Shown piece after piece: positions 1,685 through 40,689 of a stretch of 52,500 nucleotides of DNA; position 1 is the first letter of the stretch, and each line of letters begins with the position of its first letter. The position numbers were made by a program, and so were the translations under genes. Below the pieces are notes generated by a model, which worked only from the letters and a program-made list of their open reading frames with translations, had not been told where the DNA came from and ran no database searches. Origin of the DNA: Planctomycetota bacterium (GTDB lineage: Bacteria > Planctomycetota > MHYJ01 > JACQXL01); NCBI GenBank assembly GCA_038059695.1, contig JBBTIZ010000011.1, positions 1 through 52,500 of the forward strand. Direction: 5' to 3'.

Positions 1685-2510
1685 TTTGCTGATTCAGGCC
1701 ACCATCGGATGCCCCCACAATAAATGCACCTTCTGCGGGATGTATAAAGGCAAAAGATTCCGCATCCGACCGGTTGATGAAATTAAAGAAGATATCCTGA
1801 CGGCCCGGAAATTATACGGCGATGCCTTTGACAGCGCTTTTTTCCCGGACGGCAACACTATTATAATGAGGACTTCCCAATTGGAGGAAATCTTCACCTT
1901 CGCGCGCCGGACATTTCCTAATCTCAAGCGGATTACGCTCTATGCCTCGGCCAAATTCCTGAAACTAAAGTCATTGGCAGACCTGAAACGGCTCAAAGTA
2001 GCCGGGCTTAACCGGCTGCACAAAGGATTGGAAAGCGGGAATGACGAAATACTGCGGCGCATCCAAAAAGGCGCTGATTCCAAACTGATGATATCCACCG
2101 GCCAGAAAGTCAAAGCCGCCGGCATAGAATTAAGCGAATACGTCCTGGTCGGCATCGGCGGTGCGGAATTATGGGCCGAGCACGCCCAGGATACAGCCCG
2201 GGTGCTCAATGCAATCAACCCGGACTTCATCCGCCTGCGCACCTGGGTGCCGGTGCCCAATGCGCCATTATATGAAGATTATCAAAGCGGTAAATTCCAA
2301 CTGCTCTCGCCGCACCAAGCGCTCAAGGAAACCCGGCTGTTGCTGGAAAATCTTGATGTCAGCAGTTTATTCTTGAGCGACCATATTTCCAACTTTGTCA
2401 ACCTGTCCGGCCATCTGCCCCGGGACAAGCAAAACATGCTCGACAAGATAGACCGGGCATTAAAGATGGACGAATCATCATTCAGGTCTGAAATAATAGA
2501 GCACCTGTAG
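1638..2510 (+). CDS. Radical SAM protein
   Basis: YRPPSEA..QATIGCPHNKCTFC CxxxCxxC motif; likely start ATG 1638. Confidence 0.9.
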   Translation: MRYEDPIYRPPSEADSLLIQATIGCPHNKCTFCGMYKGKRFRIRPVDEIKEDILTARKLYGDAFDSAFFPDGNTIIMRTSQLEEIFTFARRTFPNLKRITLYASAKFLKLKSLADLKRLKVAGLNRLHKGLESGNDEILRRIQKGADSKLMISTGQKVKAAGIELSEYVLVGIGGAELWAEHAQDTARVLNAINPDFIRLRTWVPVPNAPLYEDYQSGKFQLLSPHQALKETRLLLENLDVSSLFLSDHISNFVNLSGHLPRDKQNMLDKIDRALKMDESSFRSEIIEHL

Positions 2511-2551
2511 ATAAAACAGGATTCACCACTGGCGCCAAAAGTCACAAAGAT

Positions 2552-2578
2552 GTCATTCCCGCGAAAGCGGGAATCCAG
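2552..2578. repeat. dRS3-like REP hairpin
   Basis: GTCATTCCCGCGAAAGCGGGAATCCAG; related nested element at 32203-32272. Confidence 0.75.
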
Positions 2579-2596
2579 AAGACCAAGATAAAACTA

Positions 2597-2733
2597 AACA
2601 GGGACTCTTAAGAGACCTTTACGAGACCGTATCTCAAGTCTCTTAGCAGTCTCGTTCAAGTCCCTGTTATATCTTATTCGTGCGATTCGTTCCATTCGTG
2701 ATATTCGTGTTCTCTTTCGTGTCCATTCGTGGT
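2597..2733. repeat. Inverted repeat (AACAGGGACT/AGTCCCTGTT) followed by an ATTCGTG short-repeat run
   Basis: Read directly from the sequence. Confidence 0.65.
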
Positions 2734-3563
2734 TACACAATATAGCCGATAACATACGGATTGAACGTGACACTCACGTTCCCGCTCGCATCCGTAAACG
2801 AATACTGAAAACTCCCGGCAGTTATGGGAACAATCACCTGTCCGCCGTAGACCTGTCCGACATTGCGCGCCTCTACGCCAATCGCATAACATTCCTGCTG
2901 GGTTGCATCGCGCCTCAAGCGGCAGTTAATAAAGCCCTGGGGCGGCGGGGCAATACTCTGCTGGACCAGTTCCACCTGCAGGAGCAGGGCCGTGGCCTCT
3001 GCCGGAATACCCGGATTCGGGGCGCTCGGCATCCAGTCCTGATTTCCGCTGACGATTAAACTGGTCAACTGGAGCCGGGTCGGCAGGAAGGTGATTTGAC
3101 TTCCGCCACCCGCGCCCGGCGCCAGCTTTTCGGCTGTCACCGCGCCATTCTGGATTTCCCCGGTTCCGATAGCATTATTGGCAATCTTTCCCTGGGTAAT
3201 TGTGTTGGTGGCGATTTTAGAGTTGGTGATGGTCGCATCCCTTATCTTCTCGGCTGTCACTGCCTGGTTTGCCAGCTCATCCGTATCCACCGCCCCGGTC
3301 GCCAGATGCCGGCGCTCCACGCAATTGTCTGCCAGCTTAGCCGCTGAAATGGAATTATCCGGTATGCCCACAGATGGCACATCATCGCCCAGCTTGGCCA
3401 GGGTCACGGCCTTATCGGCAATATCCTCGGTCTTGACCTGCTGGTTCTTGATATCGCGCGACTCGATGGTCTCATCCGCTATTTTATCAGAGGTCACCGC
3501 GCCTTCGGTTATCTGGGGCGTGGTCACCTGCCCGCTCCCGAAATATCTTGGATTGTATGTCAT
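2733..3563 (-). CDS. Tail-fibre-like protein with 10-residue (G/N)AVTxxKIA repeats and a C-terminal beta-rich domain
   Basis: GAVTSDKIA, KAVTLAKLG, QAVTAEKIR, ATITNSKIA, GAVTAEKLA repeats typical of phage fibre shafts. Confidence 0.65.
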   Translation of the reverse strand: MTYNPRYFGSGQVTTPQITEGAVTSDKIADETIESRDIKNQQVKTEDIADKAVTLAKLGDDVPSVGIPDNSISAAKLADNCVERRHLATGAVDTDELANQAVTAEKIRDATITNSKIATNTITQGKIANNAIGTGEIQNGAVTAEKLAPGAGGGSQITFLPTRLQLTSLIVSGNQDWMPSAPNPGIPAEATALLLQVELVQQSIAPPPQGFINCRLRRDATQQECYAIGVEARNVGQVYGGQVIVPITAGSFQYSFTDASGNVSVTFNPYVIGYIV

Positions 3564-3727
3564 ATAATTAATCCTTTCTACAACAGGATTTAGCGGATTT
3601 ATCTGATTTCCGTTTAATCCTGTTTAAGTACCCGGTGCGTTCCAGTAGGTACTCCCGACCAGTGTTTCGCACAGGGCCTGTTGTTAAAAACGGGATTCGG
3701 GGCGTCTCGAGCCGCCCTTTCATCCCT

Positions 3728-3785
3728 TTAGAGCCAGTTAGATTTTAGTCGTTACAGGCTCTTATCCCGACTATTTCGTCGGGGC
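3728..3785 (-). repeat. TAA-punctuated double-hairpin element, copy A
   Basis: Minus strand: GCCCCGA..TCGGGA TAA GAGCCTG TAA CGACTAAAATC TAA CTGGCTC TAA. Confidence 0.8.
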
Positions 3786-3791
3786 ACGACC

Positions 3792-4586
3792 TTACGGTGT
3801 CGTCAGTCCCACCTGCACATGCAGATACAGCCGCGCTTCGGCGTCAACCGCCCAGATGCAGAAACACTTATCCGCTCCGGTAGTCAGCACGAAGGCATCG
3901 CACTTGGCGATGTCGCGCAGACCGTTCAGGACCGAGGCGTTGAGCGTATTCTGGGCCAGCCGAACGCTATCCGTTCCGGCATAGTCCGCGAACAACCCGC
4001 TCTGGACCAGCCTCTGTTCCAGGGCCGCCTTGAGCACCGGCTCTTCGCCGTCTCGGGCGATGTCGTAAGGCGCGCCGTCCTGGTAATCGCCTTCAGCCAG
4101 CCAGCCGCTGGCGTGCATCTCGCCGACCATAAAGGCCGTAGCCACAGTCGCCGGCCCGCGTCCCCGGACCTTGTCACCGGTGAAACGCAGTGTGGTGGCG
4201 CCCATCTTCAGGGCCCACCAGTCCTTGGCGTTAGCCACGGCCGCCTTGAAGGCCGTTGCCCCGTTGCCCAGCTTCTCGGTCAGATTGCTGACCCATTTGC
4301 TGAACGACCCGGCCAGCTTCTTCTGGCGCAGGGCCTTAATGACCTCGGTAGTCCGCCCGCCCTTGCTCCGGTAAGCCGGATTCAGGACATTGGCGTACTC
4401 GTTGGTGGACGGATTAGCCAGTATGTCAAAGAACGCCCCATCGGTCGGCATCTTGGCCATCTGGCGGTCCAGCATCAGCTGGGCGCTGTTACCCAGATTG
4501 TCCGACCACTTGTTCGGCATATCGCCGGAAACCTCGCGGTTCGGCGCCGGGTAAAGCCGCAACTCAAATTTCTTATCAAATGCCAT
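3792..4586 (-). CDS. Hypothetical protein, candidate major structural/coat protein
   Basis: Clean GC-rich ORF with SD GAGGGGG; Ala/Lys-rich helical N-half with spaced KW motifs; no family recognised. Confidence 0.55.
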   Translation of the reverse strand: MAFDKKFELRLYPAPNREVSGDMPNKWSDNLGNSAQLMLDRQMAKMPTDGAFFDILANPSTNEYANVLNPAYRSKGGRTTEVIKALRQKKLAGSFSKWVSNLTEKLGNGATAFKAAVANAKDWWALKMGATTLRFTGDKVRGRGPATVATAFMVGEMHASGWLAEGDYQDGAPYDIARDGEEPVLKAALEQRLVQSGLFADYAGTDSVRLAQNTLNASVLNGLRDIAKCDAFVLTTGADKCFCIWAVDAEARLYLHVQVGLTTP

Positions 4587-4640
4587 CTTAATCACCCCCT
4601 CTCATTGGCTGTTACAGTTCAAATGTTAATGCATGCATGT

Positions 4641-4733
4641 TTACTTCTTGTTCCTCTTTTCCAGATAATCCAAAAGCATTTCCACTATCACCTGTATTAC
4701 TTTTCTCCAAAACCCAGACATCGCTTCGAACAT
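4641..4733 (-). CDS. 30-aa amphipathic peptide MFEAMSGFWRKVIQVIVEMLLDYLEKRNKK
   Basis: Strong SD AAGGAGGT 7 nt before ATG 4733; an in-frame upstream ATG at 4832 also has an SD. Confidence 0.55.
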   Translation of the reverse strand: MFEAMSGFWRKVIQVIVEMLLDYLEKRNKK

Positions 4734-4815
4734 TGCTACCACCTCCTTTTTAATAGAGCAATGACCGCGCAGCGCACACCACAGTGGACGCGTAGCGATT
4801 ATCATCCGCCAAAAA

Positions 4816-5202
4816 TTAGACATCAGCCTCATACAAATCACCTCCCATCCTCGGTTCTATCTCCTGAATCAAATCCCAATAACCCTTAGAAAACCGACGG
4901 CCTGTTCCGTATTTATCCAGCCACTCATCCCAGAGCACAAACATGAGCACCTCGATAATCTGCTGTTTCAGATGCGGATAGACCCGGGCCAGGGCTTTTA
5001 GATCCTTGGCGATATCCTGCCGGATAGCCGGCTTGTTGTCCGCGGCGAACTCCAGCAGGCGCTTAAGCGAGCCGAAACTGCGCAGGATATAGAGGTAGGG
5101 ACGGACCAGCCGGAACGACGCCTCGTAGAGACCGGGCTGGTCGTAGAACTGCTCCTTCAGGAACTCAAAACTCGTGTAACTATCTGCGTGTTTCCTTTTC
5201 AT
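4816..5202 (-). CDS. Hypothetical protein (128 aa)
   Basis: ORF with SD AGAGAGG and host-like codon usage. Confidence 0.7.
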   Translation of the reverse strand: MKRKHADSYTSFEFLKEQFYDQPGLYEASFRLVRPYLYILRSFGSLKRLLEFAADNKPAIRQDIAKDLKALARVYPHLKQQIIEVLMFVLWDEWLDKYGTGRRFSKGYWDLIQEIEPRMGGDLYEADV

Positions 5203-5218
5203 ATAAAACCTCTCTTTC

Positions 5219-5276
5219 TTACTCGCTGTTAAACTTTAGTTGTTACAGCGAGTTAGACCCCGCAGAATTGCGGGGC
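5219..5276 (-). repeat. TAA-punctuated double-hairpin element, copy B
   Basis: Minus strand: GCCCCGCA..TGCGGGGTC TAA CTCGCTG TAA CAACTAAAGTT TAA CAGCGAG TAA, then SD. Confidence 0.8.
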
Positions 5277-5278
5277 AT

Positions 5279-6082
5279 TCATTGTTTGTGGTTATCCAAG
5301 AAATTATAAATTTCATTTATCGGCACAACCCCAGCCATTGTGGTGACCAGTTGTCCATTGTAAACCTTAACCCATACCGCTATACCAATGACTTCATATG
5401 TCCGGGCGTCGTAGACAGGTCCACCTGAATTTCCTGGAAGTATGGGAGCGGAAATCTCGTAACATGAACCACTGAAGGCACTGAGGCACCCTGAAGAAGG
5501 CCGGGGCGGAAGACCCAAGGAGCATCCAACCGCCCATATAGGAGTAAATAGATACGGAGTATAATTCTGAGGCGCTAATTTTGCTTTTGTCACAGAGCCA
5601 CAGAGGCCACTGAGAAGAGCCAGGTCTTTTGCAGTATCTGTTATAACTACAGTTGCTTGTATTTCTTTTGTTACAGGATAAAAGAACTCTATTGTTACAC
5701 TGGATTCATCCTGGACGACATGTGCTGCAGTTAAAATATATATCTGTTCTGTGTTTTCAGTGTCTTCTGTGGTGAATACTACTCCTGAACCCGTCGAGCA
5801 TCCCGCAGTTATTCTTACTGTTGGATATAGAAGTTTCTCATATTCATCCTGATATGGATGCCTTGGTTTTTCAGGCGCCTTTATTATTACTATTTCTGTC
5901 TCTGTGGTCTCAGTGTCTCTGTGGTAAAAACTCGTCCCCAGGAGAACTATCAGTGCAATCCCTAATATCTGCGTTAATCTGCGTACCATAACCCACCATC
6001 CTTTCTTTATGGAGACGGTTGGCCTCTGCGGGCTCTGTGCCTCAGTGGCTAATCTTTTGTTTCTCCATAAGGAGGGGGTCAT
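5279..6082 (-). CDS. Membrane-anchored trypsin-like serine protease
   Basis: LTAAHV, DLALL and GNSGGP catalytic triad motifs; N-terminal hydrophobic helix; start uncertain. Confidence 0.85.
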   Translation of the reverse strand: MTPSLWRNKRLATEAQSPQRPTVSIKKGWWVMVRRLTQILGIALIVLLGTSFYHRDTETTETEIVIIKAPEKPRHPYQDEYEKLLYPTVRITAGCSTGSGVVFTTEDTENTEQIYILTAAHVVQDESSVTIEFFYPVTKEIQATVVITDTAKDLALLSGLCGSVTKAKLAPQNYTPYLFTPIWAVGCSLGLPPRPSSGCLSAFSGSCYEISAPILPGNSGGPVYDARTYEVIGIAVWVKVYNGQLVTTMAGVVPINEIYNFLDNHKQ

Positions 6083-6261
6083 ATGAACCCTTTTCCTATA
6101 AATCTGAGGCGAGTATTTTCGCTATTTTGCCATATTTATGAGGGAATATAAGGGGTTAAAGAAAATGCAAAAATCCGGGCAGGCCAAAAACGCAGGACTC
6201 GTTTTCCTCTAAGTGAGGGGGATAGGGGGTAGTACCCCACCCTAGCACCCTAAGGCCGGAC

Positions 6262-6535
6262 AGATAGCCTGATTTATCAGGGCATATAGCCGAAATGATT
6301 AGGTCAGATAGCCCGATTAGTCAGGCAGGATAGCCGAAATGATTAGGTTAGATAGTCCGATTAGCCGGGCCATATAGCCGAAATGATTAGGTTAGATAGC
6401 CCGATTGATTAGGTCAGATAGTCCGGTTGATTAGGTCAGATAGCCTGATTAGTCGGGCAGGATAGCCGAAATGATTAGGTCAGGTAGTCGGTCTGGTTGG
6501 GCCAGATAGTCTGATTAGTTGGGTCAGATAGCCGG
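6262..6535. repeat. Degenerate tandem array, 22-bp period, 12 full units plus a partial unit
   Basis: Units like AGATAGCCGAAATGATTAGGTC start every 22 bp from 6262 to 6526. Confidence 0.92.
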
Positions 6536-6597
6536 AAAATGAGGGGTGGATAGTGGGGATAAAGAACCGGCCGGCCGGCGCTATTCCGATTGGCGGC

Positions 6598-7263
6598 CTA
6601 TTTCAATAACTTGCGGGCCAGGTTGTGCAGTTCCGGATTGGCCAGGGCCAGGACCTTTTTCTTGACCACCCGCGAGAAATATTCCGTCTCGGTCTTAGTG
6701 AGTTTTTCGCCCTGCAATTTCTTCAGGAACAATGACTTTTGCCCGGCGGAGAACAACTGGGACAGGGCATATTCCAGCCCGGCCTCTGATTTCAGCGCCA
6801 TCAGGTCATTGAGATTTGATTCTGAACCCTTGAGATACCGGTTAAAGGTGTTTTTCAGCCGTTGGCCGGACATTGAATAATCCTTTAACTTTAAATCGTG
6901 ATTACGCGTCAATGAGTTGCGGAATTGCTCCAGTTTGCCCCTCAGTTCTTTGGTCAGCATTTGATGGAGTTTTTCGGCCCAGGCAAACTTCAGGCCCAGC
7001 GCCTGATACAGGGCCAGCGACATCAGTACCAGCAGTTTAAAATATACCCGGTCCGCCGGCTTCAGATATTGGCTGGTCCGGCCGTAAGAGAAGAGATTCC
7101 GCTCGGAACTGTTGGCCAGCGCCACCGGAAACCCCTCCCAGAGCCGCAGGTCGCGGGACTGCACCAGCCGGGCCAGGGTCAGATTGGCGTCCACCATTGA
7201 TTCCGGCTCCATTAACTTAAAACCCAGACTGCTTAGGTTGTTCAGCAATTCTTTGTCATTCAT
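6598..7263 (-). CDS. Hypothetical protein, probable partner (antitoxin/regulator) of the nucleotidyltransferase
   Basis: Overlaps the upstream gene; basic C-terminal HTH-like segment LFSAGQKSLFLKKLQGEKLTKTETEYFSRVVKKK. Confidence 0.6.
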   Translation of the reverse strand: MNDKELLNNLSSLGFKLMEPESMVDANLTLARLVQSRDLRLWEGFPVALANSSERNLFSYGRTSQYLKPADRVYFKLLVLMSLALYQALGLKFAWAEKLHQMLTKELRGKLEQFRNSLTRNHDLKLKDYSMSGQRLKNTFNRYLKGSESNLNDLMALKSEAGLEYALSQLFSAGQKSLFLKKLQGEKLTKTETEYFSRVVKKKVLALANPELHNLARKLLK

Positions 7264-7843
7264 TGATTAACTTCTCCTTCTTGAGGATACGCCAAAAATG
7301 CTCCAGATTCTTCAGCACGGCCTCTTCCGAGGTATCGTATTGAGCGGTGGCTTCGAACCGGCTCCGGAGCTTGGTGAAATCTATCTCCCTGGTTTTGGCC
7401 CGGATTAAGGCCAGGCAGTCGTCAATATCCACCTGAGTAAACCGAAAGAGCTTGCTGATAATCAGGTCATAATGATTAAGCATGCCCAGATAAATCCGGC
7501 TGAACTCCTTAACCAAAACGTGGTTACCCGGCTCCAGCGGCGACTCCAGAAGTTCGGTCGTATGAATCCGCTTGTACCGGAACAGGTCGAATATAAAACC
7601 ATCGTCCCGGCTCCAGCCGTAGGCCTTGACCGGCTTATAGCCCAGTTGGTCCAGGGTCTTAATCAGGTAGTCGTATTCGGCCTGGACCGGCACCAGCAAA
7701 TCAATATCCTTGGTTGAGGGCTTGATGCCCTGGAGCGTTAGGGCCGTGCCGCCGCAGGCAATCAGATGCACGCGCCGCTTGAGGAAATCGTTCCAGACCA
7801 TCAGCCGGCCGAACAACCCGCCTTTATCTATTCTGTAATCCAT
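7256..7843 (-). CDS. DUF6036/AbiEii-like nucleotidyltransferase
   Basis: ACGGTAL..TKDIDL pol-beta-type NTase motif; DLIISKL..D. Confidence 0.8.
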   Translation of the reverse strand: MDYRIDKGGLFGRLMVWNDFLKRRVHLIACGGTALTLQGIKPSTKDIDLLVPVQAEYDYLIKTLDQLGYKPVKAYGWSRDDGFIFDLFRYKRIHTTELLESPLEPGNHVLVKEFSRIYLGMLNHYDLIISKLFRFTQVDIDDCLALIRAKTREIDFTKLRSRFEATAQYDTSEEAVLKNLEHFWRILKKEKLINE

Positions 7844-7975: not shown

Positions 7976-8286
7976 ACAATATATTGTATAATTTAATACA
8001 ATCCTTTGTATGTATATATACAATAATTAAAACACTTGTCAAGTAAAATATTTATTTTTATGCGGGATTTTAACCGAATGGTGCCCCATCCGGGTCTTAA
8101 GGGCTGTTTCTCCAAAGCGTGGCCTTAAATGCCGGGCCAGCGGAAATTAGCCGGGCTGAAACAGACCATCCTGGCCGTTAGGCAATATGTCAGGTATTGA
8201 GGTATTAGGAAAACGATGCCTTGCGAAGTCGCAGCGAAGTCCCGATTATTTCGGGGTAATGCAGATAAATCAAGGGTTATAAAATA

Positions 8287-8301
8287 TGTGGTCTGTCCCA
8301 C
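8287..8301. repeat. RAYT-type end motif, perfect inverted partner of 9993-10007
   Basis: TGTGGTCTGTCCCAC vs GTGGGACAGACCACA. Confidence 0.7.
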
Positions 8302-8326
8302 TGATGTGCGATACTTACTCTTTCAA

Positions 8327-9846
8327 TTATATAGCAGATTCCTCAACCTCAAATTCTGGGACCTCTACCGAATTTCCCTTACCCCAAAGTATCTCCCAAA
8401 TTAACCACTTAGTAAGAAATGATTCTATTTTGAATATAGTTTTAGCATCTTCTTCTAGAACTTTTTCTCCTTTATGTAAGAATCTGTTTCTTTTGTTTTT
8501 CATTTGTATGATTAAACTATATTGCTTAAAGTTTATCTGGCCAGAGAGGCTAAGAATTTCTACTGCTCTGTCGGCTGTATAATTTTTTAGTTTATTTTTC
8601 CTGTCTCCAATAATTTCAGTAGATTTTTGTTCCAGGAACTTATCCCACAAATAATTTATAAATTTTTCAATAACCATCCATCCCATTATAAACGTTTGAT
8701 TGTATTCGGATCCTTGTAAATAAGAATATGACTCCAATAAATAAATCAGAAGCTCTGCTATGGTCTCATTTTTTGTAAAAAGTTCGGCTTGCTTTATTGT
8801 TTCTTTTACCTGTTCTTCAGAAATCTCTCTTGTTATATTAAAATCATAGCCAGTCCTTTGCTTAGGCGTAAATTCACCTTCAAATGCGGTGGTTCTTAAT
8901 GAAACATGCATCGGCATGCTTCTACTGCCTATTTCTGATTTATCTGGAGATATTTCTGCTGTGCCTAATTCTAATTCTTTTACAGCGTAAAATGGGATAT
9001 TGAGAAGTAACGCCGTAGCCATTATTTCATTCAACATCTTTAAGGCTTGAGTTTTCTCGTTAACGCCAATCGCAATAAATCCATTTTCGTTAACAACAAT
9101 CTTACATCCTCTGTATTCTATATCAAAAGATTTTTTAGGCCACATGAATACCCTGGAATCAAACGCTTTTTCTTCAAAACTTGGATTGGGCTTTTTGCCA
9201 ATCCAAATTGGGGGATAGAAGTAAGTTCCAAAACCTTTTATTGAAACTGGAGGAGTTTGTTGAGGGGCAGAAACTGGTTGGTTCTGAGATTTTACTCTAT
9301 TTGTTGCATAACCTATGATTTGACTGATTATTTTTTTGTATCGAGTTGCTGAACATTCCCGCTTGCTTTCCAGGAAAAAGAATCATCTGTAAGTCTACGT
9401 TTCATTCCAATTCCAGCTTGATACAAGTTCTGTTTAGAAAATATAGTGATAAAGGCTCCTCCTTTGAAGCTTCTCAACAAGTCAATAAAAAGCCCTTCAA
9501 GTAACGTAGCATATATTCGCTTAGATTCATTTTTGCTAATCCGTATTTCGTCTTCCGGTAGTTTCCGCTGCCATTTTTCATCTTTTAATTTTTCCTTTAA
9601 TTTTTCTGATGCTTCATTTGAGTCGCTTTCATTAACGATTATATCTAAATCAGGCTTGTCTTTAAAGTGCGTAAAAATGAAAAGTTGATCCTGTATCATT
9701 AAACCGTGATTCTTAATAACAAAGACTTCTACTTGTAAAGGAGAACTTAAATTGTCAAGGTTGCTTACATTTTCTTTGTCTTGTTTCGAAAGTTTGGCAT
9801 ACTCTGTACGAAAATCTTGAACTAAATGTCTAATCCAATTTTGCAT
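8327..9846 (-). pseudogene. AT-rich HEPN-domain gene split by a -1 frameshift at an A7 run
   Basis: ORF 9328-9846 ends ACA AAA AAA TAA; the -1 frame is open from there into ORF 8327-9145, which carries RNRFLH (HEPN RxxxxH). Confidence 0.7.
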
Positions 9847-10063
9847 AATAACCTTAATTCGGGGGACACCATACTCAATTCCCCCCTACCCCCTAACCTC
9901 CGCGTGTTCATCCTTGGTCAGGCAGATATAGGTGTCTTTCTTGTCTTTAGCGATTCCCACTCTGCGCTTACGTCCTCGTGGGACACGTCCTCGTGGGACA
10001 GACCACACATTTTCTTTCCCTTTATTTACGCGGGTTCTAAGACGCAGTTTCGCTAAAACGCCC

Positions 10064-10654
10064 CTATTTTTTAGAACCCTGCTCCTTCCGGTAAATTGCT
10101 TGTTCAACCTCGGTCAGGCAGAAGGCGTATTTTTTAGGGCCAGCCGCCTCGGCGGGGTTTTCAAACATCCTCAGCTTGCCCTCGCAGGCCAGCCAGCCGA
10201 TACCCATCGCTGTATAGTCCTGCTTCGCCTTTATCCGTTTTTGTATCAGGTCGGATGTCAGGCGGCATTCTTTGGCGGTTTTGCCCGCCTGACCTTGCCC
10301 GTCGGGCAGGTCTTCCGCGCCTAAGCAATGCCATATCTGGCCGGCAGTTTCACCGACCTTGTGGCGGAACTCTTTCGCTGATTGCCTTTCTTCATCGGTC
10401 ATTTCATAGTGCAGCTCCCAGGCCGGTTCGTTATAGGGCGATTTTTCAAGATAGGCGGCCCGTCCGATTTTGACCAGTTCATCCATTTGTTCCTTTATCA
10501 CTTCAGGGCTCAGCCCGGTTTGGTCAGCTATTCGCTGGATAGTCCAAACGCTTTGTTTATAGAGGTAGTCCCATACTTTACCGGCGGCCTGGCCGATAAC
10601 TACTTTCGGGTCTACTTCTTTCCATTGCGGCTGTTGAACGGTTTTCTTCGGCAT
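10064..10654 (-). CDS. Tandem DUF2582-like winged-helix protein
   Basis: IGQAAGKVWDYL and VGETAGQIWHCL..MGIGWLACEGKL; SD GGAGGAG before ATG 10654. Confidence 0.7.
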   Translation of the reverse strand: MPKKTVQQPQWKEVDPKVVIGQAAGKVWDYLYKQSVWTIQRIADQTGLSPEVIKEQMDELVKIGRAAYLEKSPYNEPAWELHYEMTDEERQSAKEFRHKVGETAGQIWHCLGAEDLPDGQGQAGKTAKECRLTSDLIQKRIKAKQDYTAMGIGWLACEGKLRMFENPAEAAGPKKYAFCLTEVEQAIYRKEQGSKK

Positions 10655-10770
10655 ATTTTTCTCCTCCTGTTTATCTGCGCAATCAGCGTCATCTGTGGTT
10701 GCACTGATGATAATCTGGAGACACATACTACTCATTGGCACTATACCTTTATTCGCCTGTTAAATCAACC

Positions 10771-11250
10771 TTAATCCTCTTTTTTATGGCCTTTCTTTTT
10801 CTTGTCGCCACTCAGGCGCTTTTTGTTCTTTTCATACATCTTTTCCAGGCCCAGAAGCCAGTGGCTGATGGTATTCGGGCTTTCGCCCAAATCAGCGGCC
10901 ATGGCCTTTATCACCCCGCCGCACTTGGCCAGCGATTTCAGGCGTAACAGCTCCTTTACTCCCGGAAAATTCAGGCATTGGATGGCCTGGAATACGCCGA
11001 TTAATAATTTGCGGAATCCCTCGTGCTTGCGCTCAGGTAAGTCCGAGGACAATTCGCCGTCGTTCTTGGCCTGGAATATGTCGAATTTAGACGGTCCGGA
11101 TGCTTTGCGGCGTGATGGGCCGTTCCGGGGATTTTTGGTTTCCCCTGGCTTATCTACCGGTTTTTCAGGACGCTGGTCGCTCTCATCAAAGAAGTTTTCA
11201 TCATTGCGTGCCGGTTCCTTAAAGTTGTTATCCGGAGTGGCACAACATAT
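10771..11250 (-). CDS. Hypothetical protein with a C-terminal HTH-like segment (ATA start or frameshift)
   Basis: Frame is open from ATA 11250; VIKAMAADLGESPNTISHWL looks like an HTH. Confidence 0.5.
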   Translation of the reverse strand: MCCATPDNNFKEPARNDENFFDESDQRPEKPVDKPGETKNPRNGPSRRKASGPSKFDIFQAKNDGELSSDLPERKHEGFRKLLIGVFQAIQCLNFPGVKELLRLKSLAKCGGVIKAMAADLGESPNTISHWLLGLEKMYEKNKKRLSGDKKKKGHKKED

Positions 11251-11570: not shown

Positions 11571-11835
11571 TTATTCCTTAGACGCAGTTAATTGGGCAAC
11601 GGTGGGGATGCCGGCCGAGCCCGCCGGCAGGATGCCCAGCCGGACGTAAATCGGATGGATGGATTTTCTGATTTTGCCGAGTTGAGAGGCAAAGACCAGC
11701 GCGGCCAGGATGCAGACCCCGCCCCCGATAGCCAGGATGGCCGGCGCGCCGATGACGCTGGCCACGCTACCGGCCAGCAGGATGCCCAGCGGCATGATGC
11801 CCATAAAGGCCAGGGTAAACAAGATCATAACCCGA
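11571..11835 (-). pseudogene. 3' fragment of an MFS transporter
   Basis: RVMILFTLAFMGIMPLGILLAG..PIYVRLGIL last TM helices; 5' part replaced by TAATCTGG repeats. Confidence 0.75.
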
Positions 11836-11896
11836 GATAATCTGGGATAATCTGGGGATAATCTGGGATAATCTGGTAATCTGGGGTAATCTGGGG
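11836..11896. repeat. Six tandem TAATCTGG(G) units
   Basis: Read directly; the units copy the outer tip of the adjacent inverted repeat. Confidence 0.85.
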
Positions 11897-12097
11897 ACAC
11901 AATACTAGTTAATTTATTGCACACTCCTAAATAATAAGTTACAATAATAACACTATGGCACGATTAGCCAAAGCCGTTATTCCGGGGATTCCGCACCATG
12001 TTACCCAAAGAGGCAATCGCAGACAACAGGTATTTTTCCGAGATGCTGATGACATATAGGTTAAACAGGAGGAAAACTAGTATTGTGTCCCCAGATT
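11888..12097 (+). mobile_element. Miniature RAYT derivative with perfect 23-bp terminal inverted repeats
   Basis: AATCTGGGGACACAATACTAGTT / AACTAGTATTGTGTCCCCAGATT; internal ORF 11955-12059 MARLAKAVIPGIPHHVTQRGNRRQQVFF is a RAYT N-terminus. Confidence 0.85.
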
Positions 12098-12099
12098 AA

Positions 12100-12336
12100 G
12101 CAGATATTTCTCATATAGTAGGTTATGTTGATGCGTTTATTTTTGAGCCACATTTTTTATACCCAGACTTAATTGTTTTTAGTCCATTAGCAATAGAAAA
12201 TGAACAGGAAAATTCTCTTTTTGCGTTACTTGCTCATGAGTGTGCGCATGTTGTTCTTGGACATGCAATAGAATCGCCTGTTGAGCCAGAACCGGAGGCT
12301 GATGCCGTAGGAAGTTATATATATACTTTACGTTAG
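12100..12336 (+). pseudogene. Start-less zincin metallopeptidase (HExxH) C-terminal fragment
   Basis: Manual translation: ..LFALLAHECAHVVLGH..EPEADAVG..TLR*; begins at the IR boundary. Confidence 0.65.
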
Positions 12337-12340
12337 TAAA

Positions 12341-12868
12341 ATGAAAGGAACGATTACTATGATAAACTGGAAACGGTTAATGATAACATTGCTTATAGTA
12401 ATAAGTGCTAGTTGTATTTTGTTAGTGCCTAGTATTTGTCGCGGCGTAAGAGCAATAGATATTAAATGCAGGCTAAATTTATTAGCAATTAGTGATGGGT
12501 TGGGTAGATATTTTGAGACGAATAAATATTATCCTCAGCAGATAGAGGAAATTAAGCAGTATTTATTGGAAAGAGGATTAAATGCAGAATTAATATTTAA
12601 ATGCCCTGCGGACAAAGATAAAGTCAATAAAATAGACTATGAATATTTTTCTATTAGTCGTGCTGATGCGACTGAAACAACGGTACTAGTATATGAAAAA
12701 CAAAACAATCATTATATTGGTTGGTGGGCATTTGGATTAAAGGCATACAATGCCAGACATGTTTTAATCAGTGATGGCAAAAACAAGGATATAAAATTAT
12801 ACTCGGATGACGATTTCAAGGTACTATTAGACAAACATCAACGCAAGCCGGATAAGGAAAATAAGTAA
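12341..12868 (+). CDS. AT-rich exported hypothetical protein (pseudopilin-like N-terminus; possible immunity protein)
   Basis: N-terminal TM helix, then CRLNLLAISDGLGRYF..YP. Confidence 0.6.
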   Translation: MKGTITMINWKRLMITLLIVISASCILLVPSICRGVRAIDIKCRLNLLAISDGLGRYFETNKYYPQQIEEIKQYLLERGLNAELIFKCPADKDKVNKIDYEYFSISRADATETTVLVYEKQNNHYIGWWAFGLKAYNARHVLISDGKNKDIKLYSDDDFKVLLDKHQRKPDKENK

Positions 12869-12914
12869 TCCAAGATGATTTCTATTTACGATAAAGAAGA
12901 CAATCGGTCGTATA

Positions 12915-13032
12915 GTGCCAGAGGGACACTTCCCACCGCCGGAATCCCTTTACTTTCCTATCCCGCGTGTCTTGTGCCAGAGGGACACTTCCCACCGCCG
13001 GAATCCCTTTACTTTCCTATCCCGCGTGTCTT
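12915..13032. repeat. Exact 59-bp tandem duplication containing the RAYT end
   Basis: 12915-12973 equals 12974-13032. Confidence 0.9.
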
Positions 13033-13748
13033 TCTTGTTATAAAATCCCTTCCCAGTAACTCCGCCATTCGGTTTACGAATCTCTTATCACCTATGGGCT
13101 TGCCTGTTTTTGTCGCCTTCCGGATTAAATTCGTCTCGGATTCTTCCGCTTCTGCTTTGATTGTCTTAAGATACTCCTCCCGTTCGCCCTCGTCAAATAA
13201 ATCCTCGGTTAATACATCATCTTTAATCCCTTTAATGTGCGCCACCGCGCTGGAATACGGGTAATCCTCTATTTCCTTTACTATCCGGGCTCGTTTCGGA
13301 TTCCGCTCAATGTACCGGGCCACGACCCATAAATACGGCTCTTCATCTATAATACAAGAATGAAAACGGCTTTCCCATAATCGCCCCGTCCTTTTATATC
13401 GCCTGTTAATGTATTGCGTATAAGACAAACTCACCCCCTGCATCATCTTGGCAAATGATTCTTCTTTACCGGGACGAACCAAGAGGTGAACATGGTTAGT
13501 CATCAGGCAATAAGCCAGGATAGAGACATCCCATCTGGTGGCGTATTCCTTTAGCAGGTCTAAATACCTAGCGCGTGTTTCCTGGGCAAAGAAGACCTTT
13601 TGCTTGTTATTACCTCTTTGAATGACATGATGAGGAAAATCCACGGCGACCGCTCTGGCAACTCTCGGCATAAGAGGTACTTTATAAAAACTATGTCTTA
13701 TGTGTCAAGTAAATTAAGTGTTGTAGCCGGTGGGAAGTGTCCCTCTGG
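12977..13748 (-). mobile_element. RAYT element bounded by 21-bp inverted repeats
   Basis: CCAGAGGGACACTTCCCACCG (12977-12997) / CGGTGGGAAGTGTCCCTCTGG (13728-13748). Confidence 0.8.
13009..13671 (-). CDS. REP-associated tyrosine transposase (Y1 HUH)
   Basis: HHVIQRGNN, YCLMTNHVHLL (HUH), YIERNP, YPYSS motifs. Confidence 0.92.
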   Translation of the reverse strand: MPRVARAVAVDFPHHVIQRGNNKQKVFFAQETRARYLDLLKEYATRWDVSILAYCLMTNHVHLLVRPGKEESFAKMMQGVSLSYTQYINRRYKRTGRLWESRFHSCIIDEEPYLWVVARYIERNPKRARIVKEIEDYPYSSAVAHIKGIKDDVLTEDLFDEGEREEYLKTIKAEAEESETNLIRKATKTGKPIGDKRFVNRMAELLGRDFITRKTRGIGK

Positions 13749-40091: not shown

Positions 40092-40354
40092 ATGACATCC
40101 TATGACAACTCCTGACAGAACTCATCCTGTTAATACCGCTTTATGCGGTTAAAATACCATTTTTTAGGCCAAAAAGTCAAGGTTTTGCGCCTTGTGACTT
40201 ACCCTTGACCTAATGAATTATCTGACAAGTTAAGGTGATAAAATTCCTCTAACATCTTTAAATTACTAATGATATATCAAAAACATTTAACCTTTTATGC
40301 CAGATAAATTACTGATACAAAAATGTCCCCCCGGTGGGGGATAGGGTACCCCCT

Positions 40355-40689
40355 CATATCCCTTAGCCCCGAGAGTCATATCCCTTAGCGCCGGCAGTCA
40401 TAGCCCTTAGGGCCAAGAGTCATACACCTTATAGCCAATAGTCATACCCATTGTCCCCGAGAGCCATACCCTCTAACCCCAAGAAGCATATCCCTTAGCG
40501 CCAAGAATCATAGCCGTTAGCCCCAAGAGTCATACGCCTCAGCCCCAAGAGTCATACCCCTTAGCCCCAAGAGTCATACTCCTTAGCCCCAAGAGTCATA
40601 CTCCTTAGCCCCGAGAGTCATACGCCTCAGTCCCAAGAATCATACCCTCTATCGCCGAAAGGCATACACGTTAGAGCCGCTATGCATAC
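40355..40689. repeat. Degenerate tandem array, 22-bp period, 15 full units plus a partial unit
   Basis: Consensus about CATACCCCTTAGCCCCAAGAGT; CATA recurs every 22 bp from 40355 to 40685. Confidence 0.95.

Follow-up and report, generated by a model that had tools for sequence, protein, structure and literature searches.

The closest described counterparts of the operon reported here are the mosaic adhesive trimeric (MAT) fibres of Bdellovibrio bacteriovorus. In the parts of Caulton et al. 2024 (PMC10769870) drawn on here, MAT fibre genes are multi-copy, with 21 in the HD100 chromosome, and the proteins (approximately 1000 aa) have a signal peptide, a conserved beta-rich N-terminal domain of approximately 130 aa and variable tips. 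According to the same parts of that paper, Bd2133 is a trimeric fibre (structures 8ok3 and 8ond) and its family has been demonstrated on the surface of the predator (PMC10769870).

The first-pass annotation of the window, i.e. the whole 52,500 nt stretch of planctomycete DNA analysed, had described a compact, virion-like operon of co-oriented genes and proposed either a remnant of an unclassified virus or a secreted filament system. We recovered all five open reading frames on the minus strand (Table 1), and the gene set is as described: a membrane-anchored trypsin-like protease, a 128-aa protein (p128), an amphipathic peptide, a 264-aa protein and a fibre-repeat protein. The annotated absence of tailed-phage core genes also holds, a Pfam scan of the 51 window ORFs giving no match to terminase, portal, capsid, integrase or Zot-type ATPase and, near the fibre gene, none to tail, baseplate, capsid or packaging genes. 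The sole mobile-element match among the scanned ORFs is an IS200-like Y1 transposase (13009-13671), and the remaining window genes are housekeeping genes (ribosomal proteins, PGK, chorismate synthase, IMPDH, MurJ and LptF/G).

Table 1. Coordinates of the operon and of the associated non-coding elements in the window.
Feature	Position	Strand	Remarks
Tandem array, 22-bp period	6261..6534		44-bp super-period, ~10-12 units; upstream of protease gene
Trypsin-like protease, 267 aa	5279..6082	-	Trypsin_2; membrane-anchored, without PDZ domain
Two-hairpin structured element	5205..5278	-	Directly before ribosome-binding site of p128 gene
p128, 128 aa, family unassigned	4816..5202	-	Optional member of cassette
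30-aa basic amphipathic peptide ORF	4641..4733	-	Motif FWRKVIQVIVEML
p267, core gene of family, 264 aa	3792..4586	-	Mostly helical; 267 aa from GTG 4595
Structured intergenic region, p267 to fibre gene	3564..3791	-	Contains copy of two-hairpin element
Fibre protein, 276 aa	2733..3563	-	Repeats ~10-150 and C-terminal beta-sandwich knob ~155-276

We use the name p267 for the 264-aa unknown of the first-pass annotation; the longer form is that of the ORF caller, and the closest relative has 264 aa. None of its 40 close homologues carries a Pfam domain, and its relatives comprise 244 representatives in 1.84 billion proteins. The operon is not the only copy in its own genome, which is 55% complete and has 12 p267 matches by protein and 14 by profile. 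Among the other genomes of the order, 11 of 15 have between 6 and 39 matches (12 of 16 genomes when its own is included); 15 genomes from other orders of the class have none. A survey of 185,579 species genomes yielded 38 p267 loci, all of them in seven MAG records assigned to Planctomycetota or 'Ca. Brocadiia', and a search of the IMG/VR viral contigs gave no confirmed relative. The possibility that the genes never co-occur elsewhere was contradicted: the full gene order together with the array recurs in another MAG (L064).

The p267 paralogues share 25-64% identity, with a single pair at 97%, and their loci are dispersed among housekeeping genes, with neighbours that differ per locus, and lie at matching chromosomal places in a sister species. 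For five orthologue pairs between its own genome and the sister species the dN/dS values are 0.09-0.20. The copies are old and diverged and under purifying selection, and both the 40 close homologues and the low dN/dS values show that the operon genes are real. The cassette is a chromosomal multigene family, and no copy was found outside a single uncultivated order of groundwater Planctomycetota ('Ca. Brocadiia' in some records). A full-text literature search gave no prior publication on the family; what it retrieved was limited to the Bdellovibrio work and to papers on Planctomycetota in general.

A fibre gene lies downstream of p267 on the same strand at 9 of 12 loci in its own genome, at 11 of 14 loci fetched from genome G001 and, in other MAGs, at 22 of the 30 loci that leave room for a downstream gene; in genome G004 a fibre follows at least 10 of 15 p267 matches, as judged by position. 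The counted loci are kin and thus not independent. In genome G012, 10 of 17 fetched p267 genes are solitary, and its only fibre genes (approximately three) each follow an unrelated partner; p267 therefore has no need of a fibre. Solitary p267 genes of this kind count against a fibre explanation.

The protease (Pfam Trypsin_2, E 1e-14) is hydrophobic in a single segment, near residues 31-55, and its motifs TAAH118, DLALL153 and GNSGGP217 correspond to the catalytic triad of a trypsin-like domain. A Pfam scan with E values up to 0.1 revealed no PDZ domain, the C-terminus lies only approximately 30 residues past the protease domain, and the score against the HtrA/DegP subfamily is weak (50.6 bits vs a cut-off of 416 for TIGR02037). 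The gene is directly upstream of p267 at 2 of 12 loci in its own genome, 4 of 14 in G001 and 10 of 30 in other MAGs, while 4 of the 17 G012 loci, as well as P0068 and P0074, encode protease-p267 fusions; fused, adjacent and solo forms are mixed within three clades of a 43-row tree. These recurrent fusions provide a concrete functional link that is open to testing. Moreover, the fused ORFs have a hydrophobic stretch located at the N-terminus or close to it, which is the sole hint at an extracytoplasmic location.

For p128 there was no match in Pfam, PHROG, PADLOC or NCBIfam and no usable Atlas match; relatives lie between the protease and p267 genes, or upstream of both, at five loci (L021, L030, L048, L063 and L064). 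The small ORF was called mechanically as 66 aa (4841-4641), the conserved unit being its final 30 aa (helical hydrophobic moment 0.53, net charge +2), preceded by the strong ribosome-binding site AAGGAGGTG. Related ORFs of 27-30 aa occur upstream of p267 at 4 of 12 loci in its own genome and at L021 and L031, and the N-termini of the L034 and L048 protease ORFs carry the peptide motif in frame. Sigma70_r2 proteins adjoin L020, L029 and L035, and at L029, L034, L035 and on contig C19 of its own genome a Sigma70_r2 gene, a partner bearing zf-HC2 or DUF2582 and a small zinc-ribbon gene are positioned head to head with protease-p267 units.

Structure prediction for p267 gave a confident AF2 model (pLDDT 87.9, pTM 0.68; 56% helix counted) that matched no known fold: the best Foldseek E values were 0.15 and 0.21, and the best VIA match among 48,161 chains (Z 6.4) involves helical hairpins only. 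The knob of the fibre protein, modelled at pLDDT 75-90, aligned with the Bd2133 tip (8ok3_A) with Z 12.0 and an rmsd of 2.6 Å over 113 of 121 residues, the next, unrelated match having Z 8.9, and Foldseek gave 8ond_A with E 4.7e-5; the predicted knob thus matches the Bd2133-type beta-sandwich tip fold. The repeat part was modelled at low confidence (pLDDT 42-67, monomer model); in sequence it matches phrog_892 'tail fiber protein' with E 9e-27, and a further 19 PHROG rows were obtained. This region alone is phage-like in sequence, and therefore at most one part of one gene has a viral relative. Neither p267 (maximum KD19 1.14, elsewhere than the N-terminus) nor the fibre (maximum KD19 0.92 at residue 186, with the repeats starting directly) has an N-terminal hydrophobic signal, which counts against the fibre explanation.

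Within one knob type the identity is 80-93%, even though the p267 partners are only 25-64% identical. Two knob types are present in this genus, and a third is common to all ten fetched G004 fibres (74-87% identity). Across 153 pairings of 18 p267-fibre pairs (nine each from its own genome and G001), p267 identity correlates with identity of the first 110 residues of the fibre (r 0.70) and not with that of the knob (r -0.02). Hence, p267 and the fibre N-terminus diverge together and the knob is constant within a genome; this co-divergence could merely reflect joint duplication of adjacent genes. We also considered the fibre as target of a diversity-generating retroelement and rejected this, as no RVT_1 match was found in its 55%-complete genome and the knob is conserved, not hypervariable. 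Adhesin repertoires, phage fibres and MAT fibres among them, show the opposite of a constant knob on a variable base, and this counts against a fibre explanation.

The phased 22-bp array noted in the first-pass annotation was confirmed (TRF scores 145-321). In 1.27 Mb of its own genome there are 44 arrays of the 21/22-type period, each with a different unit sequence; such arrays lie within 2.4 kb upstream of p267 at 16 of 64 loci and downstream at 0 of 65. The two-hairpin element before p128 is a copy of a genome-wide element (pattern match C11:5255) with a GC hairpin at 5258-5275. Another copy lies in the gap between p267 and the fibre gene, and the element recurs in that position at other loci. 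The predicted RNA fold of this gap has an energy of -79.8 kcal/mol (z -4.9), and none of 200 shuffles was as stable. A 51-aa ORF at 3723-3568 overlaps the structured stretch, has no relatives and is probably not a gene.

A secreted filament system, one half of the first-pass proposal, is possible and is the reading we prefer, since the fold of the modelled knob is that of a Bdellovibrio surface-fibre tip. More precisely, we tentatively favour, at slightly below an even chance, that the operon is one copy of a cell-encoded, envelope-associated fibre system in which p267 would act as the cognate base. The core of the cassette is p267, followed, usually in this family of genomes, by a short tail-fibre-like protein with a Bd2133-type knob, while a minority of copies, including this operon, add the protease, p128 and the amphipathic peptide of 30 aa. 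Another family of the order has the protease and p267 in one polypeptide; a helically phased 21/22-bp array often stands at the head of the unit, and genes for sigma-70-family factors flank some copies. The products may build a fibre associated with the cell envelope, with the protease in the cytoplasmic membrane, its catalytic domain outside, holding or processing p267, and with p267 as the cognate base or adaptor to which its own fibre would join by the N-terminal end. The knob would be the constant, lineage-specific end and would bind a single shared partner, possibly a structure of the own cell or of a specific host or prey, and the paralogues may be separately regulated versions without cross-assembly.

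A bolder form of the fibre reading, which we consider rather unlikely, is an 'inverse-mosaic' fibre organelle, i.e. a new kind of bacterial surface apparatus composed of many two-part fibres in which p267 and the fibre N-terminus have co-diversified around a constant knob. In this form, small-genome groundwater Planctomycetota would devote an estimated 1% or so of their genes to paralogous fibres, the knob would be kept constant per lineage and exchanged between paralogues, a dedicated membrane protease would mature p267, and helically phased 21/22-bp arrays would control each unit. If true, the apparatus would possibly attach to one specific host or prey.

Other explanations have to be weighed against an envelope-associated fibre. 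It is improbable that the cassette is an envelope-signalling module in which a DegS-like site-1 protease acts together with the adjacent sigma factor and the partner protein of that factor. In such a module p267 would be either a sensor or regulatory domain in place of the missing PDZ domain or the substrate of the protease, and the fibre an accessory output or ligand. HtrA-type enzymes have their PDZ domains C-terminal to the protease, which is where fused p267 sits, and the trypsin/HtrA-like protease with its single membrane anchor and no PDZ, as well as the head-to-head sigma factor units, would fit. However, p267 copies far exceed proteases (2 of 12 loci in its own genome are protease-linked), the partner of most p267 genes is a fibre rather than a protease or sigma factor, and it would be unusual for a few proteases to be served by dozens of diverged sensors. 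Even less can be said for a bacteriocin-like or effector system, which we hold to be quite improbable, with p267 as a helical membrane-active or toxic effector, the knob targeting other cells, the protease activating and the small peptide acting in release or immunity. Many diverged paralogues would suit an arsenal, some copies have the amphipathic peptide, the p267 model contains many helical hairpins, and the best PDB sequence match of the p267 profile is the colicin E1 channel domain. Yet this match is not significant (E 0.067, 15.6 bits), the 50 best structural matches include no colicin, and p267 lacks the hydrophobic helical hairpin of pore-forming colicins (see the KD19 maximum above); no gene of immunity type accompanies the cassette consistently, the paralogues are homologues of one another throughout rather than a set of swapped toxin domains, and PADLOC gave no match.

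That p267 and the fibre stay in the cytoplasm as an intracellular assembly, the membrane protease having another target, is very improbable. The lack of signal peptides in both proteins agrees with it, as does the absence of contractile or T6SS sheath genes from five genomes (four of them at least 92% complete), because of which the usual carriers of signal-less fibres are not in evidence. Against it, the positive-inside rule would place the remainder of the protease-p267 fusions, beyond the N-terminal hydrophobic stretch, outside the cytoplasm, and the one clear structural relative of the knob is the tip of a MAT fibre, whose family has, in the parts of the work considered, been shown on the predator surface. 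Finally, the viral half of the first-pass proposal, i.e. a set of structural genes from an unclassified virus, left as a remnant or domesticated, is already largely refuted and highly improbable. The fibre repeats resemble phage tail-fibre families, jelly-roll capsid proteins are among the weak knob matches (Z 7-8), and a protease beside, and fused to, a structural protein recalls the prohead protease-capsid layout. On the other side stand the many diverged copies at fixed chromosomal places, the restriction to one bacterial order, the window without a phage core gene and the lack of confirmed IMG/VR relatives; in addition, p267 was compared for an HK97-fold capsid or encapsulin, and no capsid protein is among its best 50 matches (Foldseek PDB and BFVD; VIA, 48,161 chains).

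The virus reading is thus replaced by a defined, unusually large lineage-specific family for which no Pfam domain and no fold match were found. The knob, constant and specific to the lineage, is indicative of a single conserved binding partner, the identity of which would inform on the lifestyle of these uncultivated, small-genome Planctomycetota. The arrays, which keep their period and not their sequence and occur upstream only, offer a tractable case of possibly structural, helically phased regulatory DNA.

Compared with known systems, the arrays resemble iterons in being direct repeats of approximately 22 bp that lie in non-coding DNA and precede units of accessory genes, but no replication gene lies near them and each has its own unit, only the period of about two helical turns being common. 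The protease shares with HtrA, DegP and DegS the trypsin fold and the His/Asp/Ser motifs, and with DegS the N-terminal membrane anchor; it differs in having no PDZ domain, in scoring far under the family cut-offs and in being fused to p267 in some genomes. Tailed-phage fibres have a conserved N-terminal end and a variable tip. The repeat region matches such fibres (phrog_892, phrog_28766 and phrog_21412; E 9e-27 to 5e-13), whereas the cassette has no tail, baseplate, capsid or packaging genes nearby, no sheath was found in the genomes searched, and the pattern is reversed, with a variable N-terminus and a constant tip. With MAT fibres, as far as the parts of PMC10769870 drawn on here describe them, the cassette has in common multi-copy chromosomal fibre genes, a phage-fibre-like shaft and, in the predicted model, the C-terminal beta-sandwich of Bd2133, the sole clear structural match of the knob. 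In contrast, the cassette fibres are only 276-394 aa long (276-425 aa with mechanically called G001 ORFs), lack the signal peptide and the ~130-aa N-terminal domain, and each follows its own p267, for which those parts of the paper describe no MAT counterpart. The MAT base is conserved and the tip diversified, while in the cassette fibres of any one genome it is the tip that stays constant and the N-terminus that varies; the re-use of phage-type fibres by bacteria, a principle recently recognised through MAT fibres, would thereby extend to a distant phylum with the conservation pattern reversed.

The window's own genome (1.27 Mb, 55% complete) gave 12 p267 matches by a single-protein search and 14 by profile. 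Within the order, the family is present in 12 of the 16 species genomes (own genome counted); the other 11 carry 6-39 matches each and represent 8/9 genomes of the window's own family, 2/2 and 1/2 of two others and 0/1 in each of two more. Among 15 genomes that represent other orders of this class, p267 was absent. Searching 1.84 billion representative proteins by profile yielded 244 members. One peptide pattern, run against 185,579 species genomes, matched at 38 loci, each of which belongs to one of seven MAG records titled Planctomycetota or Candidatus Brocadiia. Among sequencing runs there were 13 DNA rows from five studies and no RNA rows; most are labelled groundwater or aquifer metagenome, with the rows of the second study carrying no label.

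The first-pass annotation had proposed a remnant of a virus and suggested a search for more copies in this genome. The fibre does have a phage-like first part (table), and the reported absence of phage core genes was borne out, since 51 ORFs of the window, compared with Pfam, returned housekeeping families and zero phage core genes. The copies, however, form a multigene family rather than a provirus: they are dispersed among unrelated housekeeping genes, paralogues are 25-64% identical except for one pair at 97%, dN/dS is 0.09-0.20 for five orthologous pairs between the own genome and the sister species (the remaining seven own-genome copies are without a close orthologue among the 14 loci fetched from the latter), and no p267 relative was confirmed in a pattern scan of IMG/VR. 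On these grounds the virus remnant reading is very unlikely, and the p267 copies are old, vertically inherited, chromosomal genes under selection.

The co-oriented ORFs and the tandem array upstream of them are likewise real, as first described. A single hydrophobic segment lies around residues 31-55 of the protease, which also carries the motifs TAAH118, DLALL153 and GNSGGP217; the Pfam scan detected no PDZ domain in it. p267, p128 and the small ORFs have no match in Pfam, PHROGs, PADLOC or NCBIfam, and the ESM Atlas gave no usable match for p267 or p128. We place the p267 start, most likely, at ATG 4586 (264 aa), in line with its closest relative. The 51-aa ORF is not counted as a gene, given the structured non-coding stretch in which it lies and that no relatives of it were found. 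Rfam over positions 2400-7000 returned nothing besides one chance-level snoRNA row, and counts in the promoter and terminator scan were at chance level.

Features of the cassette and of the surrounding window
Feature	Position	Strand	Remarks
Six co-oriented ORFs	6082 to 2733	minus	ORF listing
Trypsin-like protease, first gene		minus	Trypsin_2, E 1e-14
p128, 128 aa, after the protease		minus	no family match
30-aa conserved unit inside 66-aa mechanical ORF	4733-4641	minus	strong ribosome-binding site; amphipathic, basic
p267	3792-4586	minus	core gene
51-aa ORF	3723-3568	minus	in strongly structured non-coding stretch, z -4.9
Fibre, last gene, 276 aa	2733-3563	minus	matches phage tail-fibre families over its first 150 residues (phrog_892, E 9e-27)
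Tandem array, period 22, 44-bp super-period	6261-6534		upstream of protease
Terminator-like hairpin	6579-6566	minus	sole minus-strand site; between preceding gene and array
Nucleotidyltransferase pair	6598-7843	minus	DUF6036 (E 8.6e-11), 8-bp overlap with 221-aa protein of no family
Low-G+C stretches	8000-10000, 12000-13000		G+C 0.36-0.37 vs ~0.50 elsewhere; 272-aa and 172-aa ORFs without family match
Protein with two DUF2582 winged-helix stretches	10064-11052	minus	beside 93-aa ORF
21-bp repeat, 3 copies	11836-11897		inside ORF 11571-11924; encodes repeated PDYPRLS at N-terminus of small membrane-like protein
IS200-like Y1 transposase	13009-13671		adjoins low-G+C stretches
Second 22-bp array, 13.4 copies	40354-40647		different unit; between minus-strand HTH_17 gene and plus-strand UbiA-family gene
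Two-hairpin element	5205-5278, ~3700-3790, 20697, 38432, 44568, 35665	-, -, +, +, -, -	

A fibre gene lies downstream of p267 on the same strand at 9/12 loci of the own genome, 11/14 fetched from the sister species and 22/30 of those in other MAGs, counting loci with 600 bp or more of downstream sequence; a protease is immediately upstream at 2/12, 4/14 and 10/30, respectively. As to the gene order, for which the first-pass annotation had suggested looking elsewhere, array-protease-p128-p267-fibre recurs at a locus in another MAG (L064). In G012, a genome from another family of the order, 10 of the 17 fetched p267 loci are solo, three are protease-adjacent and four are fused into one protein of 608-685 aa with the protease N-terminal and p267 C-terminal; two more such fusions (P0068 and P0074) are present in the protein library, and the fused ORFs contain a hydrophobic stretch, located at the N-terminus or close to it. 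In a tree of 43 rows the solo, adjacent and fused forms are intermixed and the fusions fall in three separate clades, so protease and p267 must have become joined or separated on repeated occasions. A search for longer p267 forms returned none, which is weak evidence; fusions are known from other searches. P0111 and P0116 were considered as p267-fibre fusions and rejected; their C-terminal extensions match neither the fibre profile (E 0.36) nor PHROGs. G012 has only about three fibre genes, and the fetched ones follow a partner that we rejected as a p267 relative, there being no detectable relatedness. Because of this pattern we regard p267 as the core of the family and the fibre as a frequent but non-obligatory partner. 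Several units are flanked by Sigma70_r2 proteins, accompanied by a small zinc-ribbon gene and by a partner that carries zf-HC2 or DUF2582; at L035 the partner of the sigma factor has DUF2582.

Of the 52 tandem arrays in the own genome with a score of at least 100 and a length of at least 80 bp, 44 (that at 40354-40647 among them) repeat every 21 or 22 bp or at a multiple of this, with a different unit sequence in each; the 18-nt core of the array upstream of the cassette gave single chance-like matches only elsewhere in the genome. Counting only loci with a full 2.4-kb flank, an array of this type lies upstream of p267 at 16/64 (own genome 2/11, sister species 4/14, G012 2/17, other MAGs 8/22) and downstream at 0/65. 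The expectation from own-genome density is 0.09 arrays per flank, and the p-values (Fisher 4.6e-6 for upstream vs downstream, binomial 1.6e-4 for the upstream count) overstate the significance, since orthologous loci are counted repeatedly. Arrays also head both G012 fibre units with the non-p267 partner. Since conservation extends to the period, about two helical turns, but not to the sequence, we suggest that the arrays might work through helical phasing, either by curving the DNA or by offering a periodic surface for docking.

Structure searches, also suggested by the first-pass annotation, were informative for the C-terminal knob of the fibre, which matches the tip of the Bdellovibrio bacteriovorus protein Bd2133, but not for p267, for which there was no convincing fold match. 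The p267 model, which is confident (pLDDT 87.9, pTM 0.68), consists mainly of helices, and each end has beta strands; Foldseek gave nothing at E <= 0.001 (best 0.15 in PDB and 0.21 in BFVD), and the best of 48,161 chains compared by VIA reached Z 6.4, to helical hairpins only. A colicin E1 channel domain was rejected, the sequence match being non-significant (E 0.067) and the hydrophobic hairpin absent. In the fibre model the repeat part is poor (pLDDT 42-67), and the C-terminal domain (about residues 155-276) has pLDDT 75-90. This predicted domain superimposes on the C-terminal beta-sandwich of Bd2133 with Z 12.0 and rmsd 2.6 A over 113/121 residues (Foldseek E 4.7e-5), the next structural match being well below at Z 8.9.

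Two knob types are present in the genus, and within a type, knob identity is 80-93% at the protein level and 71-86% at the DNA level, whereas their p267 partners are only 25-64% identical. Over 153 pairings of 18 p267-fibre pairs (nine each from the own genome and the sister species), p267 identity correlates with that of the first 110 fibre residues (r 0.70) and not with that of the knob (r -0.02). In the pair from contigs C23 and C84, p267 is 97%, the fibre N-terminus 94% and the knob only 90% identical. A third type is common to all ten fibres fetched from another genus (G004; 74-87% identity). Thus, knob types and correlation together indicate that the knob is constant per lineage and differs between lineages, while fibre base and partner co-diverge. 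Given the many synonymous differences, we read the knob as being under strong purifying selection with past exchange between paralogues.

Orphan knob ends, corresponding to the last 32-42 residues, were observed in the own genome (C23 81624-81719 and C42 11979-12074) and in the sister species (C27:6538-6663, C19:152616-152738 and C10:71113-71229); those of C23, C42 and sister-species C27 lie about 60-70 bp downstream of complete fibre genes. Such short copies prompted the idea of a diversity-generating retroelement, which was rejected because the 55%-complete own genome yielded no reverse transcriptase and because of the conservation of the knobs. The short copies may be scars of knob exchange or replacement.

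The two-hairpin element consists of a GC hairpin, TAA, a covarying 7-8-nt stem around 'TAAC-small hairpin-CTAA', and TAA. It has 94 strict-regex matches in the genome, 66 of them with an upstream GGG signature; at 22/66 the sense side has a ribosome-binding site plus start codon no more than about 35 nt further on, compared with 4/66 on the antisense side and 6% of random positions. Rfam gave no match over the stretch compared, and the element resembles an abundant 5' leader or a REP-like element. The nucleotidyltransferase pair looks like a toxin-antitoxin-type pair, and similar nucleotidyltransferase genes occur near other cassettes (own-genome C4 and C91, and L044 of G012). The low-G+C stretches are probably acquired DNA. 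A close relative of the 93-aa ORF adjoins another own-genome cassette (C4).

With the gene family, the fibre and protease linkage, the fusions, the knob fold and the conservation pattern established, we propose that the protease would sit in the cytoplasmic membrane by its anchor, its domain facing outwards, and might hold or process p267, that the N-terminus of each fibre could rest on its own p267 as cognate base or adaptor, and that the knob would bind a single partner common to the lineage. Against this proposal, p267 and the fibre have no signal peptide, p267 is often solo in G012, and joint duplication alone may account for the co-divergence of p267 and fibre. No contractile sheath or T6SS sheath gene turned up in five genomes, which makes it unlikely that the fibres belong to an injection machine. 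Alternative readings, given less weight here, are a signalling module, an effector system, an intracellular assembly and a virus remnant.

The closest known system is the family of mosaic adhesive trimeric (MAT) fibres of Bdellovibrio. According to the parts of PMC10769870 that describe them, Bd2133 is one of 21 MAT fibres, and several of these were demonstrated at the surface of the predator; common to all of them are a signal peptide, an N-terminal domain that is conserved and a tip that is diversified, and the Bd2133 tip is described there as having no PDB structural homologue at the time. A full-text search of the literature returned nothing on the cassette; MAT-like proteins of other bacteria are listed in the supplementary tables of that paper and could bear on the comparison. 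The cassette resembles MAT fibres in its Bd2133-type tip fold, phage-like shaft and multi-copy nature; unlike them it is without the MAT-defining N-terminal features, its conservation pattern is reversed, and it has in addition an obligate-looking partner, p267, without a fold match. From these N-terminal features, the reversed pattern and the added partner, we consider the cassette to be a bacterial phage-type fibre system outside the MAT family.
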